Shown: positions 25,281-29,372, counted from the first letter of the stretch. The stretch is 50,051 bases of DNA from an uncultured Muribaculaceae bacterium (GCA_964575655.1 CAZNQV010000002.1:1-50051); one strand, 5' to 3'. Notes: generated by a model from the letters alone, not told the origin. Made by a program: numbers and translations.

Positions 25281-25907
25281 ATGTTAAACGAAGGAAAGTC
25301 TAGACAAGTGCTACTATCAGTACTAGGTGTTGCAATTCTAGTAGTGGCAGTAGTAGGTATTTCGTATGCTGCATTTACAGTAGGAGGAACTGCAAACACT
25401 AATACTATTAGTACTGCAACTATTACTATGGCATATGCACAACCTACAAATGGTATTTACATTAATAATGCATTACCAATGGATGAAACTGCTGGTAAAG
25501 GACAAAATACTTGCACCAGTTCAACTGATTGTACTGTATTTGATTTTACTGTTACAGCTTCAGCTTCAGCAGCAGTTAATATACCATATACGATTAGTGT
25601 AACAGAAGTTTCTGGTAATACAATTCCTGATGCAAATGTTAGAGTTTATTTAACAAACATGAATGGTGATGCAGACACAGAAATTGTATATGATACTGTA
25701 GATCATTTGACTGCATATACTGGTCATAGCAGAACAAATTCTTATACTTTGACTACAGGTACATATGCAGTAGTTGCTGGAACACCTACTGTCAATGAAT
25801 ATCGTTTAAGAATGTGGTTAGATGCAGATTATGTTCCACCAACTGGAACAGCTGCAGTATATAAACTTCTTGTTAATGTAGATGCAGATGCTACACCATT
25901 ATCTTAA
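25281..25907 (+). CDS. Secreted Thr/Ala/Gly-rich protein with a SipW-class signal peptide, TasA-like module (paralogue 1)
   Basis: 208 aa with a perfect AAGGAGGT RBS. The signal anchor ends in 'VVGISYA|AFTVGG'. Module motifs: 'NTISTATITMAY', 'FDFTVTA', 'VRVYLT', 'EYRLRMWLDADY', 'YKLLVNVDA'. Confidence 0.75.
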   Translation: MLNEGKSRQVLLSVLGVAILVVAVVGISYAAFTVGGTANTNTISTATITMAYAQPTNGIYINNALPMDETAGKGQNTCTSSTDCTVFDFTVTASASAAVNIPYTISVTEVSGNTIPDANVRVYLTNMNGDADTEIVYDTVDHLTAYTGHSRTNSYTLTTGTYAVVAGTPTVNEYRLRMWLDADYVPPTGTAAVYKLLVNVDADATPLS

Positions 25908-25962
25908 TATTTTAGCCAATATTTATAATAATTTTTAAAATCTATAAAGGAGGAATAGTAAA

Positions 25963-26631
25963 TTGGAAAAGAATAATTCAAAGCAAATAGTGCTTTCAAT
26001 ATTAGCGGTAGTTGTATTAGTAATCGCTGTTGTTGGAGTATCATTCGCTATGTATACATTTAGTGGAACAGGTACTAAAGAAAATACAATTAATACTGCA
26101 ACTCTTAGTATTACATATAGTGAAGAAACATATATAAATCTTACAAATCAGTTTCCACAAGCAGATAGCCGCGGTTTTGCACTTGATCGTGAAACACCAG
26201 CTTCATCTACTGCAACTGCAGGAGCTGTATTAGAGTTTTCAGTACAATTAGCAACTAGTATACCAACTACTGTAAACTATGATGTTAACTTTGATGCTGT
26301 TGTTAATGGTACAACTTTAACAACTGATTATATTAAATTATATGTAACAACAGTTAGTGGTGCAACCGAAACCCCATACACAGGATTCGGAACTACTGGT
26401 TCACCTACTGCTAAACTTATGAATTTATATTATGATGTTGATCCAGCAGTAGATTTACCTATTATTGAAGGTACGTTTAGTGCAGAAGGAACACATACTT
26501 ATGTAATTCGTGCTTGGGTAAGTGATGCATATGATTTACCAACAACTGATAATACTTCTGGTGCTACAATTGGTAACACAACAACAACTGATACTATAAC
26601 ATTTAAGCTTAAAGTATCTGCAACAGACTAA
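25963..26631 (+). CDS. Secreted Thr/Ala/Gly-rich protein with a SipW-class signal peptide, TasA-like module (paralogue 2)
   Basis: 222 aa. TTG start 7 nt after AAAGGAGGA. 'VVGVSFA|MYTFSG', 'NTINTATLSITY', 'LEFSVQL', 'IKLYVT', 'HTYVIRAWVSDAY', 'FKLKVSAT'. Confidence 0.75.
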   Translation: MEKNNSKQIVLSILAVVVLVIAVVGVSFAMYTFSGTGTKENTINTATLSITYSEETYINLTNQFPQADSRGFALDRETPASSTATAGAVLEFSVQLATSIPTTVNYDVNFDAVVNGTTLTTDYIKLYVTTVSGATETPYTGFGTTGSPTAKLMNLYYDVDPAVDLPIIEGTFSAEGTHTYVIRAWVSDAYDLPTTDNTSGATIGNTTTTDTITFKLKVSATD

Positions 26632-26644
26632 TGAAGTATAAATT

Positions 26645-26671
26645 AGACTTATTTACATAAGTCTTTTTTTT
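26645..26671 (+). terminator. Rho-independent terminator after paralogue 2
   Basis: AGACTTA / TAAGTCT stem (7 bp), 6-nt loop, then T8. Confidence 0.8.
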
Positions 26672-26749: not shown

Positions 26750-27517
26750 ATGTTTAGTAAAAAGAAAGATAATGATGATGATTATATAATTTATATTGTG
26801 CAAGAAAACGATACTCTTAATAGTATTGCTAATAAGTATGATGTGACAGTTAAATCAATTATGAAAATTAATGAATTAGAAGACGAAAATATTGTTGTTG
26901 GTCAGCAATTGTATATTGAAAGAACAAAAGATGCGATACCTATATTTTTATTAGTGCTTATGTTGTTAGCGTTAATTGCAGGAGCATCTTTTATTACATT
27001 TGCAATTACTGATTATTTTTCTAATCAAGGTGGCGGTGGACCTAATAATATTGATGTCGGAACTGTTATTTTTTCATTTAGTGAATCCGATAATGCGATT
27101 AGTATTGTTGATGCTTATCCAACATCTGATATGGTTGGTAAGACATTAAGTGGCGATGATCAATACTTTGATTTTACTGTATCTTTTCAATTTAGTGAAG
27201 AAGCAGAAAAAGTTGTTTATGAAATTAATTTAATTGAATCGGCTATTAGTGGAACAAAACTTGATCCTAAATTTGTTAAAGTTTATTTAGAAGAAAATGG
27301 AAGCGCAGCTACTGGTTTTACGAATACAGTACCATTATTTAGTGAATTGCAAGATAGCAAATATCGTCAAGACACGAAAGTTTTATATACTAAAGAGATT
27401 ACTACAACGCAAACCAATTCATATCGTTTTAGAATGTGGGTTGCTGAAGGATATAATGTTGATGAAGTAGTTAGAATATTTAAATGCTTAATTAATGTAG
27501 ATGGTTATGTAGAATAA
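26750..27517 (+). CDS. LysM domain, TM/signal anchor, then TasA-like module (paralogue 3)
   Basis: The ATG at 26750 is preceded by AAAGGGTG. LysM 'YIVQENDTLNSIANKYDVTVKSIMKINELEDENIVVGQQLYI'. Hydrophobic helix ending in 'GASFITFA|ITDYFS'. Module motifs 'NIDVGTVIFSF', 'FDFTVSF', 'VKVYLEE', 'NSYRFRMWVAEGY', 'FKCLINVDG'. Confidence 0.7.
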   Translation: MFSKKKDNDDDYIIYIVQENDTLNSIANKYDVTVKSIMKINELEDENIVVGQQLYIERTKDAIPIFLLVLMLLALIAGASFITFAITDYFSNQGGGGPNNIDVGTVIFSFSESDNAISIVDAYPTSDMVGKTLSGDDQYFDFTVSFQFSEEAEKVVYEINLIESAISGTKLDPKFVKVYLEENGSAATGFTNTVPLFSELQDSKYRQDTKVLYTKEITTTQTNSYRFRMWVAEGYNVDEVVRIFKCLINVDGYVE

Positions 27518-27530
27518 AAAGGGAGATTAT

Positions 27531-28223
27531 ATGAGAACAGTAAGGCTAATTTTCAAAATAATAGGCAAAGCAATAATGGCATTTTTGATTATTGTTATAG
27601 TTTGTTTGGCAGCATATGTAATTACAATTAAAGTGATGCAAAAAAAAGGGCAACTTGATAAATTGCCAATAAATATATATGTTATTCTTACGCAGAGCAT
27701 GCATCCAACAATAAAAGCAGGCGATATGATTGTTGATTATCGAAATCAAGATGGATTATATAATGTTGGAGATATTATTACCTTTGTATCAAGTGATAAA
27801 TTTAGTAATGGTGTTACTATAACTCACAGGATTGTTGAAATATTAGATTCTGGTGATAAGATAATGTATCGTACGAAAGGTGATAGTAACAGCACAGCCG
27901 ATCCGACACCTACGCCAAAGGAAAATGTAATAGGTAGAGTGCTATTTAAAATACCTAAAGTGGGATTCATACAACAGTTTTTAGTTACTAAAACTGGTTG
28001 GATAGTAGCAATTGTATTGCCTTGCATGGGAATAATTGTATTTGATATTGTAAAATTATTTACAAGAAGACCTAAAAAGATTAAAGTTGAACCAGAAAGG
28101 TCTGTTATTATTCAACCAAGTCTAGCACAGGAAGACACAGAGAAAACGAAAGAGATTATTGTGAAAAATGAAAATGTAGAAAGGGTTGAAGAGGATGAAG
28201 ACGATTTTTGGGGAATTAATTAG
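27531..28223 (+). CDS. sipW: Signal peptidase I, SipW (archaeal/ER Sec11) type
   Basis: 230 aa. N-terminal TM, 'ILTQSMHPTIKAGDMIV' (catalytic Ser box), 'ITHRIVE' (His box), 'YRTKGDSNSTADP'. A second TM is followed by a charged tail. The layout matches B. subtilis SipW. Confidence 0.85.
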   Translation: MRTVRLIFKIIGKAIMAFLIIVIVCLAAYVITIKVMQKKGQLDKLPINIYVILTQSMHPTIKAGDMIVDYRNQDGLYNVGDIITFVSSDKFSNGVTITHRIVEILDSGDKIMYRTKGDSNSTADPTPTPKENVIGRVLFKIPKVGFIQQFLVTKTGWIVAIVLPCMGIIVFDIVKLFTRRPKKIKVEPERSVIIQPSLAQEDTEKTKEIIVKNENVERVEEDEDDFWGIN

Positions 28224-28905
28224 AGAGATGATTAATTTGTTAGTAGGTGCGATGCTTGTTATCTGCCTATTAATGACGGGTTATTTAATATTTGCCAATA
28301 TTTATCATACAAAAGAAACGACTTATCGATATAATGTTGTTATTGCAGAAGATGAAACATATAAAACTTTTACTAATAGAGTTAATAGAATTGATGAATT
28401 AGTTTCAAAATATGATTACTCTAATATAGATAGTGGCTCTCAAAAACAATATTATGAAAACATTATTGCTATTATAAATAATTGTAATACCGCCTTTAAG
28501 TCTAGTAAGCTATATGCTTCTAACAATGTAACATCAGTTAGTACAAGAGATGTTTATGATTACTATGGATATTATAGTGGTACAATAATAAATAAATGTA
28601 TGGTAATGGAGATGACAAAACTAGATACTATAAATGAATTAAATAGTTTTAAAGATCCTTACTTTGATTCGGCAAAAGATTACATTAAGTTAACAAGGGA
28701 ACAGTTATCTAAAAATACTAGTTCTATGATATCAACATTATTTCAGAATAGTTCTTATTCATATATTACAGATGTTTCGAGGGATACAATATATAATCCA
28801 ACTAAAATGATGTTTTATCAAATGTTAAGTAATTATGATAGTTCTGCTAAATTAGTAGAAAAGTTAGCTGAATATATGGCGACTAAGTTAGGAGGGGTAG
28901 CATAA
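28195..28905 (+). CDS. Single-pass membrane protein, unknown function (sipW operon)
   Basis: About 236 aa. N-terminal TM 'INLLVGAMLVICLLMTGYLIFANIY', then a Tyr/Asn/Ser-rich, probably helical ectodomain. Overlaps the sipW 3' end. The start could be 28186 (TTG) or 28195 (ATG). Confidence 0.6.
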   Translation: MKTIFGELIREMINLLVGAMLVICLLMTGYLIFANIYHTKETTYRYNVVIAEDETYKTFTNRVNRIDELVSKYDYSNIDSGSQKQYYENIIAIINNCNTAFKSSKLYASNNVTSVSTRDVYDYYGYYSGTIINKCMVMEMTKLDTINELNSFKDPYFDSAKDYIKLTREQLSKNTSSMISTLFQNSSYSYITDVSRDTIYNPTKMMFYQMLSNYDSSAKLVEKLAEYMATKLGGVA

Positions 28906-29372
28906 TGAAACAAATTATTAATATACTTTTTGCTTTCTTAAAATTTATTCTACTGTTATTGGCAACTGGATTAATATTCTACGGACTTTTAGTTACATTC
29001 TCTAGGTTGGATAAACCGGTTACTGAAGCAATTCCAACATTATTACCATTCATATTATTATTGATTGCTTTTGTGATTAATTTGCTTGCTAAACAGAGAC
29101 AGATAAATAGAAACTTATTCTATAATATTGTATGTGTCTTAGTCTTATCGGCAGTAATATTTATAGGTTATCGTGCTAAATTTGATACTGGTATGGTTTT
29201 ATATCAAAAATATGGTATAAACTATAATCCTTCATATCTAGCGGATAATCTTGGAACAATTAAATTAATGATTTATTTACTATTTGCTTCAAATGTCTTG
29301 CTAATGTTTACTAAAAAACCGAAAAACCAAAAGACAGAAAATGTTGAAAAGATTAAAACTGTTACTGAATAA
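28905..29372 (+). CDS. Four-TM small membrane protein, unknown function (sipW operon)
   Basis: 155 aa. ATAATG overlap with the upstream stop, preceded by GGAGGGG. Four hydrophobic segments and a basic tail. Confidence 0.6.
   Translation: MKQIINILFAFLKFILLLLATGLIFYGLLVTFSRLDKPVTEAIPTLLPFILLLIAFVINLLAKQRQINRNLFYNIVCVLVLSAVIFIGYRAKFDTGMVLYQKYGINYNPSYLADNLGTIKLMIYLLFASNVLLMFTKKPKNQKTENVEKIKTVTE

Follow-up and report, generated by a model that had tools for sequence, protein, structure and literature searches.

What might a dedicated signal peptidase and the secreted proteins encoded beside it build? The question is raised by a locus at positions 25281-29372 of a stretch of DNA of 50,051 nucleotides (CAZNQV010000002.1:1-50051, of GCA_964575655.1), which we call the window. 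This locus holds six open reading frames (ORFs), all directed alike on the + strand and bounded by a 3D-domain (yabE-like) gene and by ksgA. An earlier note, made from the sequence alone, had read them as the gene of a SipW-type peptidase with three TasA-like paralogues, two membrane proteins completing the set, and had proposed that self-assembling proteins dependent on SipW might have here a new and remote branch. The six ORFs are all present at the coordinates and on the strand that it gave, and its proposal is, judging from sequence and predicted structure, the reading toward which we lean, without great confidence. In this reading, which we hold to be on balance probable, subunits processed by SipW would polymerise by donation of an N-terminal strand into a surface fibre, in which variants bearing adhesin domains would also be included. 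The genes concerned are the following.

25281..25907, + strand: paralogue A, 208 amino acids (aa), major class (189 bits with the hidden Markov model, HMM, of its class)
25963..26631, + strand: paralogue B, 222 aa, TTG start, major class (155 bits with the major-class HMM)
26750..27517, + strand: paralogue C, a LysM domain plus the module shared by the paralogues, pre-sipW minor class
27531..28223, + strand: sipW, 230 aa, transmembrane segments at the N and C termini and a charged C-terminal tail
28186..28905, + strand: p239, a single transmembrane helix at the N-terminus, then ~200 aa of extracytoplasmic domain
28905..29372, + strand: p155, a membrane protein whose hydrophobic segments are several, four when counted by eye, and whose start overlaps the p239 stop by one base
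31290..32939, + strand: paralogue D, 549 aa, between veg and spoVG, outside the interval of the earlier note

The paralogues, the peptidase and the conserved cassette

The paralogy of A, B and C is far above chance: A matches B at E = 2e-11 and C at E = 2e-13 (BLASTP). The landmarks by which the earlier note had defined a shared module coincide with the conserved columns of the family alignment (N41, P66, F89, Y123, R177 and W179), in which the conserved blocks are NTIxTxT, FDFTV, VKVYL, YRLRMW and KLxVNV. Of the three paralogues that it announced, the kinship stands but the number does not, D being a fourth; nor do the three form one set of equivalents, since A and B are of the major class and C of a distinct one that precedes sipW (172.6 bits with the pre-sipW HMM, against 131 with that of the major class).

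In A, residues 1-30 are a predicted signal peptide ended by ISYA↓AF, a putative SipW site (the arrow marks the proposed cut), residues 31-45 an N-terminal tail that is conserved and, by prediction, disordered, and residues 46-202 a predicted 9-strand beta-sandwich; the putative cleavage site of B is VSFA↓MY. C is built otherwise: an N-terminal LysM without preceding signal peptide, then one hydrophobic helix, the Gly-rich linker NQGGGGPNN and the module. Its LysM belongs to PF01476 (50.7 bits for a cut-off of 20.9, residues 41-82 of the 281-aa ORF) and is a fusion found nowhere else among 323 module ORFs from the loci described below and ~390 database proteins. As it precedes the sole hydrophobic helix, it is predicted to lie on the cytoplasmic side, and it stands where relatives of C have a cytoplasmic extension; C is a candidate for a membrane-proximal or base subunit.

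D joins the module (about residues 1-205) to an ALK/LTK-type glycine-rich domain at residues 221-547, whose membership of PF12810 is clear (141.2 bits for a cut-off of 24.5, E = 7.4e-41), and the glycine codons of D account for a local G+C peak at 32000-32500 (0.46 versus ~0.26). Its module fits no single class (59, 51.5 and 50 bits). D is a candidate for a subunit bearing an adhesin or an effector.

The product of 27531 had been called an archaeal/ER-type SipW, and rightly: it belongs to TIGR02228, the archaeal/ER-type signal peptidase I (103.3 bits, cut-off 51.85), and the catalytic columns Ser56 (SM-P), His99 (THR) and Asp118/Asp124 (GD-N...D) are kept in 59 relatives. With NF046067, the equivalog model of the Bacillus SipW, it scores 102.9 bits, below the cut-off of 190. 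By these sequence criteria the enzyme is an intact one of SipW type, without being the orthologue of that of Bacillus.

The two membrane proteins encoded next are orphans. The start of p239 overlaps the end of sipW (an ATG at 28195, the position retained by the earlier note, is the alternative start), and this translational coupling of p239 and p155 to sipW suggests a membrane complex. Identity of p239 to its relatives is just 15-23%; N38, H41, C100, D122, C138 and Y217 are nonetheless invariant, and could be a Cys/His/Asp catalytic set or include a disulfide pair. The invariant residues of p155 are K13, R34, K37, P48, R90 and D94. Pfam scans of 21 members of each, together with a profile search of the PDB, gave no relatives of either protein, and p239 matched neither DUF5305 (the TafG family) nor any other family.

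How far this arrangement is shared was examined in 78 loci from uncultured gut Bacilli, gathered by homologue look-ups and by scanning a single genome of each species; their records bear the titles Ca. Onthousia, Mycoplasma sp. CAG:611 or “uncultured Tenericutes/Bacilli”, and the metagenomes of origin are of the gut (chicken, rabbit, human and others). ORFs were called in all loci, 2047 in total, and classified by iterated HMMs. Sixty distinct loci have all genes on one strand and in an identical order: tatD, the 3D-domain gene, one to seven module genes, sipW, a minor module gene, p239, p155, ksgA, yabG, veg and spoVG. SipW is present in 60 of 60, the minor module gene that follows it in 56 of 60, and p239 and p155 in 59 of 60, p239 following sipW. 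The survey of the interval between tatD and ksgA that the earlier note had called for thus finds the ordered set at this position in these 60 loci. Its picture of genes “wedged into” a backbone is misleading: the arrangement is fixed lineage-wide and is not a strain-specific insertion. We found no description in the literature of this cassette, in a close relative or elsewhere, nor of the lineage in connection with SipW or pili.

Three classes of module genes are distinguished in these loci. Major subunits have an almost invariant N-terminus, SKQVLLSVLGVAILVVAVVGVSFAAFSYSKTG..NTITTGTITMSYSE. The pre-sipW class invariably takes the final place among the module genes ahead of sipW, and its cytoplasmic N-terminus is longer; the sub-clade closest to the window has a conserved [VI]AD-VADEIL motif in this extension, and in some members a long acidic linker comes after the helix. 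The post-sipW class, of ~180 aa, usually lacks a small residue at -1, and is absent from the window.

Two observations concern particular loci. In one relative, L001 (a contig of 1.5 Mb; 11539-15734), genes for an ISL3-family and an IS110-family transposase lie between the second and third major-subunit genes, so that the tandem array tolerates or attracts insertion sequences. In the rabbit-gut metagenome-assembled genome (MAG) Lapin-012__bin84, at least 12 module genes are dispersed with no sipW alongside (loci L029, L033, L035, L036, L043, L047, L052, L055, L062, L063, L074 and L082). Copies share ~85 nt of identical nucleotide sequence at their 5' ends, in which L082 has a CAA-to-TAA change, and several copies stand, without upstream ATG or ribosome-binding site, after a variable poly-A (A8 in L062, A7 in L082). 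These copies could be silent cassettes, reflect phase variation or gene conversion, or be assembly noise.

The module family, its predicted fold and its likeness to TasA

The module has no model in Pfam or NCBIfam, and scans of the locus proteins, and of 33 family members at E <= 10, gave no match of TasA, BsaA or SipW-cognate type. The family is nonetheless very large: words in common with A occur in 792 clusters (90% identity), none of them named, and an exhaustive profile search of 1.84 billion representatives returned 7134 clusters at 50% identity (E <= 1e-3), 4266 of which reach E <= 1e-10 and 564 E <= 1e-30. Of the 146 top representatives, 52 (about a third) reach 300 aa or more, up to 1743 aa, and begin with the module. 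Nineteen long members were scanned: 9 have C-terminal domains recognisable by Pfam, mostly of adhesin type, and 10 have none. The domains seen are Big_2, Listeria-Bacteroides repeat, cadherin-like, DUF6273 and Gly-rich as in D, an architecture (module plus Gly-rich domain) that P0294 shares. The gene of one long member, P0319 (902 aa; L083 2670-5378), has the housekeeping genes dNK, recG, lexA and polA around it and no sipW in the vicinity. The module is thus a general N-terminal module of surface proteins of adhesin type.

The fold was predicted with AlphaFold2, for the full-length protein (predicted local distance difference test, pLDDT, 83) and for the mature part only (85 sequences; pLDDT 88.5, predicted template modelling score 0.84). 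Both models are 9-strand beta-sandwiches. In both, residues 31-45, just after the proposed cleavage site, are disordered (pLDDT < 50) though conserved, with aromatics at 32 and 34. Residues 28-38 of TasA behave likewise, and it is they that form the donor strand once fibres are made (PMC9674648). The weak neighbours found by Foldseek are jelly-roll domains and carbohydrate-binding modules; the donor-strand pilins CsuA/B, the PapG pilin domain, FimG and the archaeal AbpA (7UEG) come at ranks 19-48, with template modelling (TM) scores of at most 0.41.

The likeness to TasA lies in the N-terminus. The TasA sequence taken as control agrees exactly with PDB chain 8AUR_A over residues 28-261, and its mature N-terminus, A28, was confirmed against entry 8AUR. 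The motif of the module family is G26-[VI]-S28-[FY]-A30↓A-[FY]32-[ST]-[YF]-[ST], then N41-T-I-x-T-G46-T-[IL]-x-[ML]; that of the TasA family is G24-T25-W26-A27↓A28-F29-N-D, then N37-x-F39-A-A-G42-T-L-D-L. S28 is present in 93% of the module sequences, A30 in 84% and an aromatic (F/Y) at 32 in 87%. Aligned with hhalign to TasA alone, the module profile gives E = 2.6e-4 and a probability of 42%, with the cleavage site and the first strands in register; with a profile of 111 TasA sequences it gives E = 7.4e-4 and 26%, the N-terminal ~60 columns only being aligned. The aromatic-Ala junction beside a SipW, which the earlier note had pointed out, is thus indeed shared with TasA ([S/T]-aromatic-A↓A-F, in the same register). 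With this site, of form [S/T]-aromatic-A↓A/x-F, and with sipW adjacent in 60 of 60 loci, the module proteins are putative SipW substrates.

Other comparisons go the same way. The TasA model NF046066 matches a typical major subunit at residues 8-68 (E = 0.0035). When a TasA HMM was run on the 2047 ORFs of the loci, module proteins took 39 of the first 40 places, outranking other families with an N-terminal helix, with scores of at most 11.3 bits and on proteins that are not independent of each other; forward module sequences exceeded reversed and shuffled controls by ~5 bits (median). Signal peptide, cleavage site and first strand are moreover the most conserved part of the family, the frequency of the commonest residue being 0.68-0.74 there and 0.50-0.59 elsewhere. 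Gene conversion as the source of this conservation was ruled out in this genome: A and B differ at synonymous sites in the N-terminal region, so that selection acts on the protein sequence.

Two further candidates were set aside. Of the paralogues, D carries the most TasA-like motif (SYA↓LFTD...NVISVGTLEI), and a bridge to TasA through D was considered; it was dropped, the module of D having just two relatives in the databases, P0121 and P0122, standalone proteins of ~212-226 aa, neither of them annotated. A triad like that of the isopeptide of BsaA (N41/E54/K121) was also rejected: among 439 sequences, 56 have Arg in place of the Lys, and 32 of these keep the Glu. The idea had come from A itself, which shows joint E-to-Q and K-to-R changes at this candidate triad.

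Gene neighbourhood and transcription signals

The placement of the interval between a yabE-like gene and ksgA is borne out by the matches of both flanks, and yabG, veg and spoVG are further neighbours downstream. G+C is ~26-32% across the DNA, with no compositional break seen. The flanking genes and the signals found in the interval are these.

23824-24576: tatD, upstream flank
24607-25206: 3D-domain (yabE-like) gene, PF06725, upstream flank
29341-30207: ksgA, TIGR00755 (234 bits), downstream flank
25228..25256, + strand: promoter-like site upstream of A, TTGTAA, 17-nt spacer, TATATT, with TG, from a consensus scan alone
26645..26671, + strand: intrinsic-terminator-like hairpin after B, AGACTTAT-TTAC-ATAAGTCT, 8-bp stem followed by a U8 T-run

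The division into two transcription units proposed by the earlier note is sound, as is its gene map. Perfect Shine-Dalgarno sequences had been claimed for A and B: A is preceded by a perfect AAGGAGG ribosome-binding site and B by AAAGGAGG, of the AAGGAGG type. Behind B, the “strong terminator” placed at 26645 is a plausible hairpin (z = -5.3; 0 of 200 shuffles fold equally well) of moderate strength only (-7.2 kcal/mol), which the consensus scanner missed because its stem has just 2 G-C pairs; it plausibly closes the A-B unit. The longer ORF of C, from 26672, overlaps this terminator, so that the start at 26750 chosen by the earlier note is most likely the right one. C, sipW, p239 and p155 overlap one another or are separated by 13 nt. 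A weak hairpin with a T-run at 25215-25246, 3' of the 3D-domain gene, is not significant (z = -0.8), and no terminator was found before ksgA.

Elsewhere in the window, T-box leaders (RF00230, 119 and 122 bits) occur on the + strand at 646-824 and 43179-43380, before the ORFs 853-2577 and 43418-44896. The sole sizeable ORF nearby on the - strand, 23094-23726, sits between a 220-aa ORF (22435-23097) and tatD, and encodes 210 aa with one hydrophobic helix followed by a charged region.

A probable fibre, and its alternatives

In the mechanism that we favour, A and B would be abundant major subunits, exported by the Sec pathway through their highly conserved signal peptide and cut by SipW after [S]-[F/Y]-A. 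The cleavage would free the conserved tail A-F-x-Y/V..., disordered in the monomer model, which would insert as a donor strand into the beta-sandwich of the neighbouring subunit, making a non-covalent polymer as in TasA, BsaA and the archaeal bundling and Tafi pili. C, of the pre-sipW class with its extended cytoplasmic N-terminus, might be the membrane-proximal initiator or anchor; a base subunit tethered by its helix fits the BsaA polymers, which are anchored in the membrane and not to peptidoglycan (PMC11580942). D and the longer members with Ig-like, Listeria-Bacteroides-repeat, cadherin-like or Gly-rich domains would enter the fibre through their module and display the adhesive domains, and p239 and p155 would form a membrane platform aiding processing, assembly or anchoring.

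Several features argue for this mechanism. An intact peptidase is invariably co-encoded; the site after the helix, with small residues at -3 and -1, aligns with the proven site of TasA; conservation within the family is highest at the N-terminus; the 15 residues after the site are conserved yet disordered, like TasA 28-38; and the tandem majors, minor classes and adhesin variants mirror pilus operons and the Tafi locus.

A series of results weighs against it. The likeness to TasA is real but it is narrow, confined to the first ~60 residues, and statistically weak, much of it being hydrophobic signal peptide: once the signal peptides are removed, hhalign keeps the same register without significance (E = 0.055, probability 1%). 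The comparisons of the paralogues with TasA-type profiles, which the earlier note had suggested, were negative: the TasA control matched the models of SipW substrates as expected and the module proteins did not. A, B, C, D and 33 family members leave PF12389 unmatched even at E <= 10; so do, for TIGR04088 (34 positions, cut-off 19 bits), the N-termini of A, D, a typical major and a post-sipW minor subunit, where TasA scores 38 bits; TIGR04090 (BsaA) and TIGR04089 are likewise unmatched by module proteins. NF046066 gives 16.8 bits on one member, over the N-terminus only, for a cut-off of 450 and a TasA control at 513.8. The comparison of structures, also suggested, found no significant match to TasA or to any other PDB entry: for both models Foldseek returned nothing at E <= 1e-3 and no TM above 0.41, TasA itself (8AUR, 5OF1) falling outside the top 50 matches, and searching the PDB with family sequence profiles gave spurious matches only, e.g. 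ovalbumin. The sole chain of the TasA superfamily in that top 50 is AbpA (7UEG; ranks 29 and 48, E = 7e-3 to 2e-2, TM 0.29-0.35). The AlphaFold2 monomer is, besides, a complete and confident sandwich with no evident missing strand; the hydrophobic region, ~20 residues abutting the proposed site, is long for a cleaved signal peptide and fits an uncleaved anchor; and the fibre model does not account for the LysM of C on the predicted cytoplasmic side. Of the loose likeness to TasA and camelysin noted earlier, the N-terminal motif is therefore retained, through hhalign, and family membership is not (PF12389, NF046066, Foldseek).

The module might also be a very large, previously unrecognised donor-strand pilin-like family (more than 7000 clusters at 50% identity) with a fold other than that of TasA, sharing with TasA the SipW-type leader and the donor-strand principle. 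We regard this as possible, though rather doubtful; what is shared would then reflect either a very deep divergence or the recruitment of the same N-terminal cassette. If this were true, the family would form with SipW, p239 and p155 a new pilus-assembly system, in which the His, Cys and Asp of p239 could be catalytic, and would be the main platform of adhesin display for a whole order of uncultured small-genome gut Bacilli.

The module proteins could instead be monomers at the surface, with the N-terminal helix as an uncleaved anchor, or cleaved for release, and the sandwich as a stalk or spacer; together they would make a coat of paralogous, possibly antigenically variable proteins, SipW acting on a subset of them or regulating their shedding. 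The hydrophobic segment of ~20 residues is indeed unusually conserved, many proteins joining the module to adhesin-type domains are encoded away from any sipW, the pre- and post-sipW classes have cytoplasmic extensions or no small residue at -1, and the AlphaFold2 monomer is a complete sandwich. The number of tandem copies, from 1 to 7, and the copies dispersed in the rabbit-gut MAG with their identical 5' ends suggest variation. Monomers, however, leave unexplained a dedicated SipW in the centre of 60 of 60 cassettes, the conserved [S]-[F/Y]-A↓A-F site with small -3 and -1 residues aligned with the proven site of TasA, and the 15 conserved but unstructured residues that follow it; we consider this explanation unlikely, if one to be taken seriously. 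Retaining the helix as the core of a filament, as type IV pilins do with a cleavage upstream of it, would agree with its very high conservation and with matches, below threshold, to the archaeal Pilin_N (PF07790, 15.2 bits for 25.2), PilA4 and ComP. The Pilin_N matches span the hydrophobic helix only, though, and the 60 cassettes contain no prepilin peptidase or assembly ATPase, nor is there a platform protein or a class III site (G/A↓hydrophobic) before the helix; moreover, the cassette's own peptidase is of the S26 kind, whose cut falls behind the hydrophobic region. We rejected this possibility, to which we give hardly any credit.

The neighbourhood might rather evoke the spore, the proteins then belonging to its coat, an outer layer or appendages instead of to a vegetative fibre. 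The original description of TasA was as CotN, a protein associated with the spore coat. PDB entry 5OF1 still names it “Spore coat-associated protein N”; yabG and spoVG, and in relatives yabP, yabQ and spoVT, are linked to sporulation; and the LysM of C, on the predicted cytoplasmic side, has its best score with TIGR02907, the model of SpoVID (E = 1.2e-11, though far under the cut-off of the model). This LysM fusion is however unique to this genome, and the only promoter-like site upstream of A is of the sigma-70 type. The order tatD-yabE-ksgA-yabG-veg-spoVG is, as in B. subtilis, just the conserved backbone of Bacillota, so that the neighbourhood is uninformative. A role in the spore is very improbable in our opinion.

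The fibre of SipW-processed subunits can be set beside the systems already described. Like tapA-sipW-tasA of B. subtilis (PF12389; fibre 8AUR), the cassette encodes a dedicated SipW-type peptidase with several secreted beta-rich paralogues, which upholds the operon logic seen by the earlier note. The two have in common the [S/T]-aromatic-A↓A-F site, a conserved N-terminal segment and a strand N-x-[IF]-x-x-G-T-[LI] in register, as well as the presence, beside the major subunit, of a minor paralogue or an accessory protein related to it at the N-terminus, the role of TapA for TasA. At the opposite, the cassette has no match to PF12389, NF046066 or TIGR04088, no detectable similarity in the globular domain and no TapA homologue; it has several tandem majors where Bacillus has one TasA, adds two conserved orphan membrane proteins, and its module is widely fused to adhesin-type domains. 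The sipW-bsaA-bsaB-bsaC system of Clostridium perfringens also combines sipW with paralogous matrix proteins and a larger protein with an interaction domain (VWA in BsaC, Gly-rich in D), but TIGR04090 is not matched here and no sortase or type IV pilus genes lie near the cassette.

With the archaeal pili of the TasA superfamily (AbpA; Tafi, with TafA/E, the tip TafC, the anchor TafF, the peptidase TafD and the helper TafG; AbpX) the likeness is in the logic of the locus, which in Tafi comprises a pilin, a minor pilin, a tip, an anchor made of a transmembrane segment plus a jelly-roll, a peptidase and a helper (PMC12337348; see also bioRxiv 10.64898/2026.01.04.697558 for the organisation of such loci). 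The Foldseek match to 7UEG is not significant, however, export is of Sec type here and of Tat type there, and p239 has no DUF5305 match. Taken in the broad sense (TasA, BsaA, AbpA, AbpX, Tafi, threads, CanA), the superfamily meets in the module a predicted sandwich whose jelly-roll neighbours are weak, at TM <= 0.41. Chaperone-usher and sortase pili likewise have several pilin paralogues per operon, with major, minor and adhesin-bearing subunits, and CsuA/B, the PapG pilin domain and FimG are weak structural neighbours, of a kind generic to beta-sandwiches; chaperone, usher, sortase and LPXTG motif are all missing here, and the organism is monoderm. The cassette would work like the SipW/TasA-type systems, but it fails their family tests, and adds new conserved parts and a very large unannotated domain family. 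We do not assign the module to the TasA, BsaA or Tafi families; by analogy the cassette would function as they do.

As the module is often fused to Ig-like, Listeria-Bacteroides-repeat, cadherin-like and Gly-rich domains, the family probably mediates adhesion to the host, to mucus or to other microbes. If the fibre reading is true, a whole lineage of uncultured gut Bacilli, among them Ca. Onthousia, the type of “Mycoplasma sp. CAG:611” and MAGs recorded as “Tenericutes”, would build its main surface appendage from a protein family for which no database has a model. The principle of a SipW combined with donor-strand fibres, known from TasA, BsaA, AbpA and Tafi, would gain a new fold family and two conserved accessory proteins, and the analysis yields a domain definition, ready to be made into an HMM, for annotating thousands of “hypothetical proteins”.

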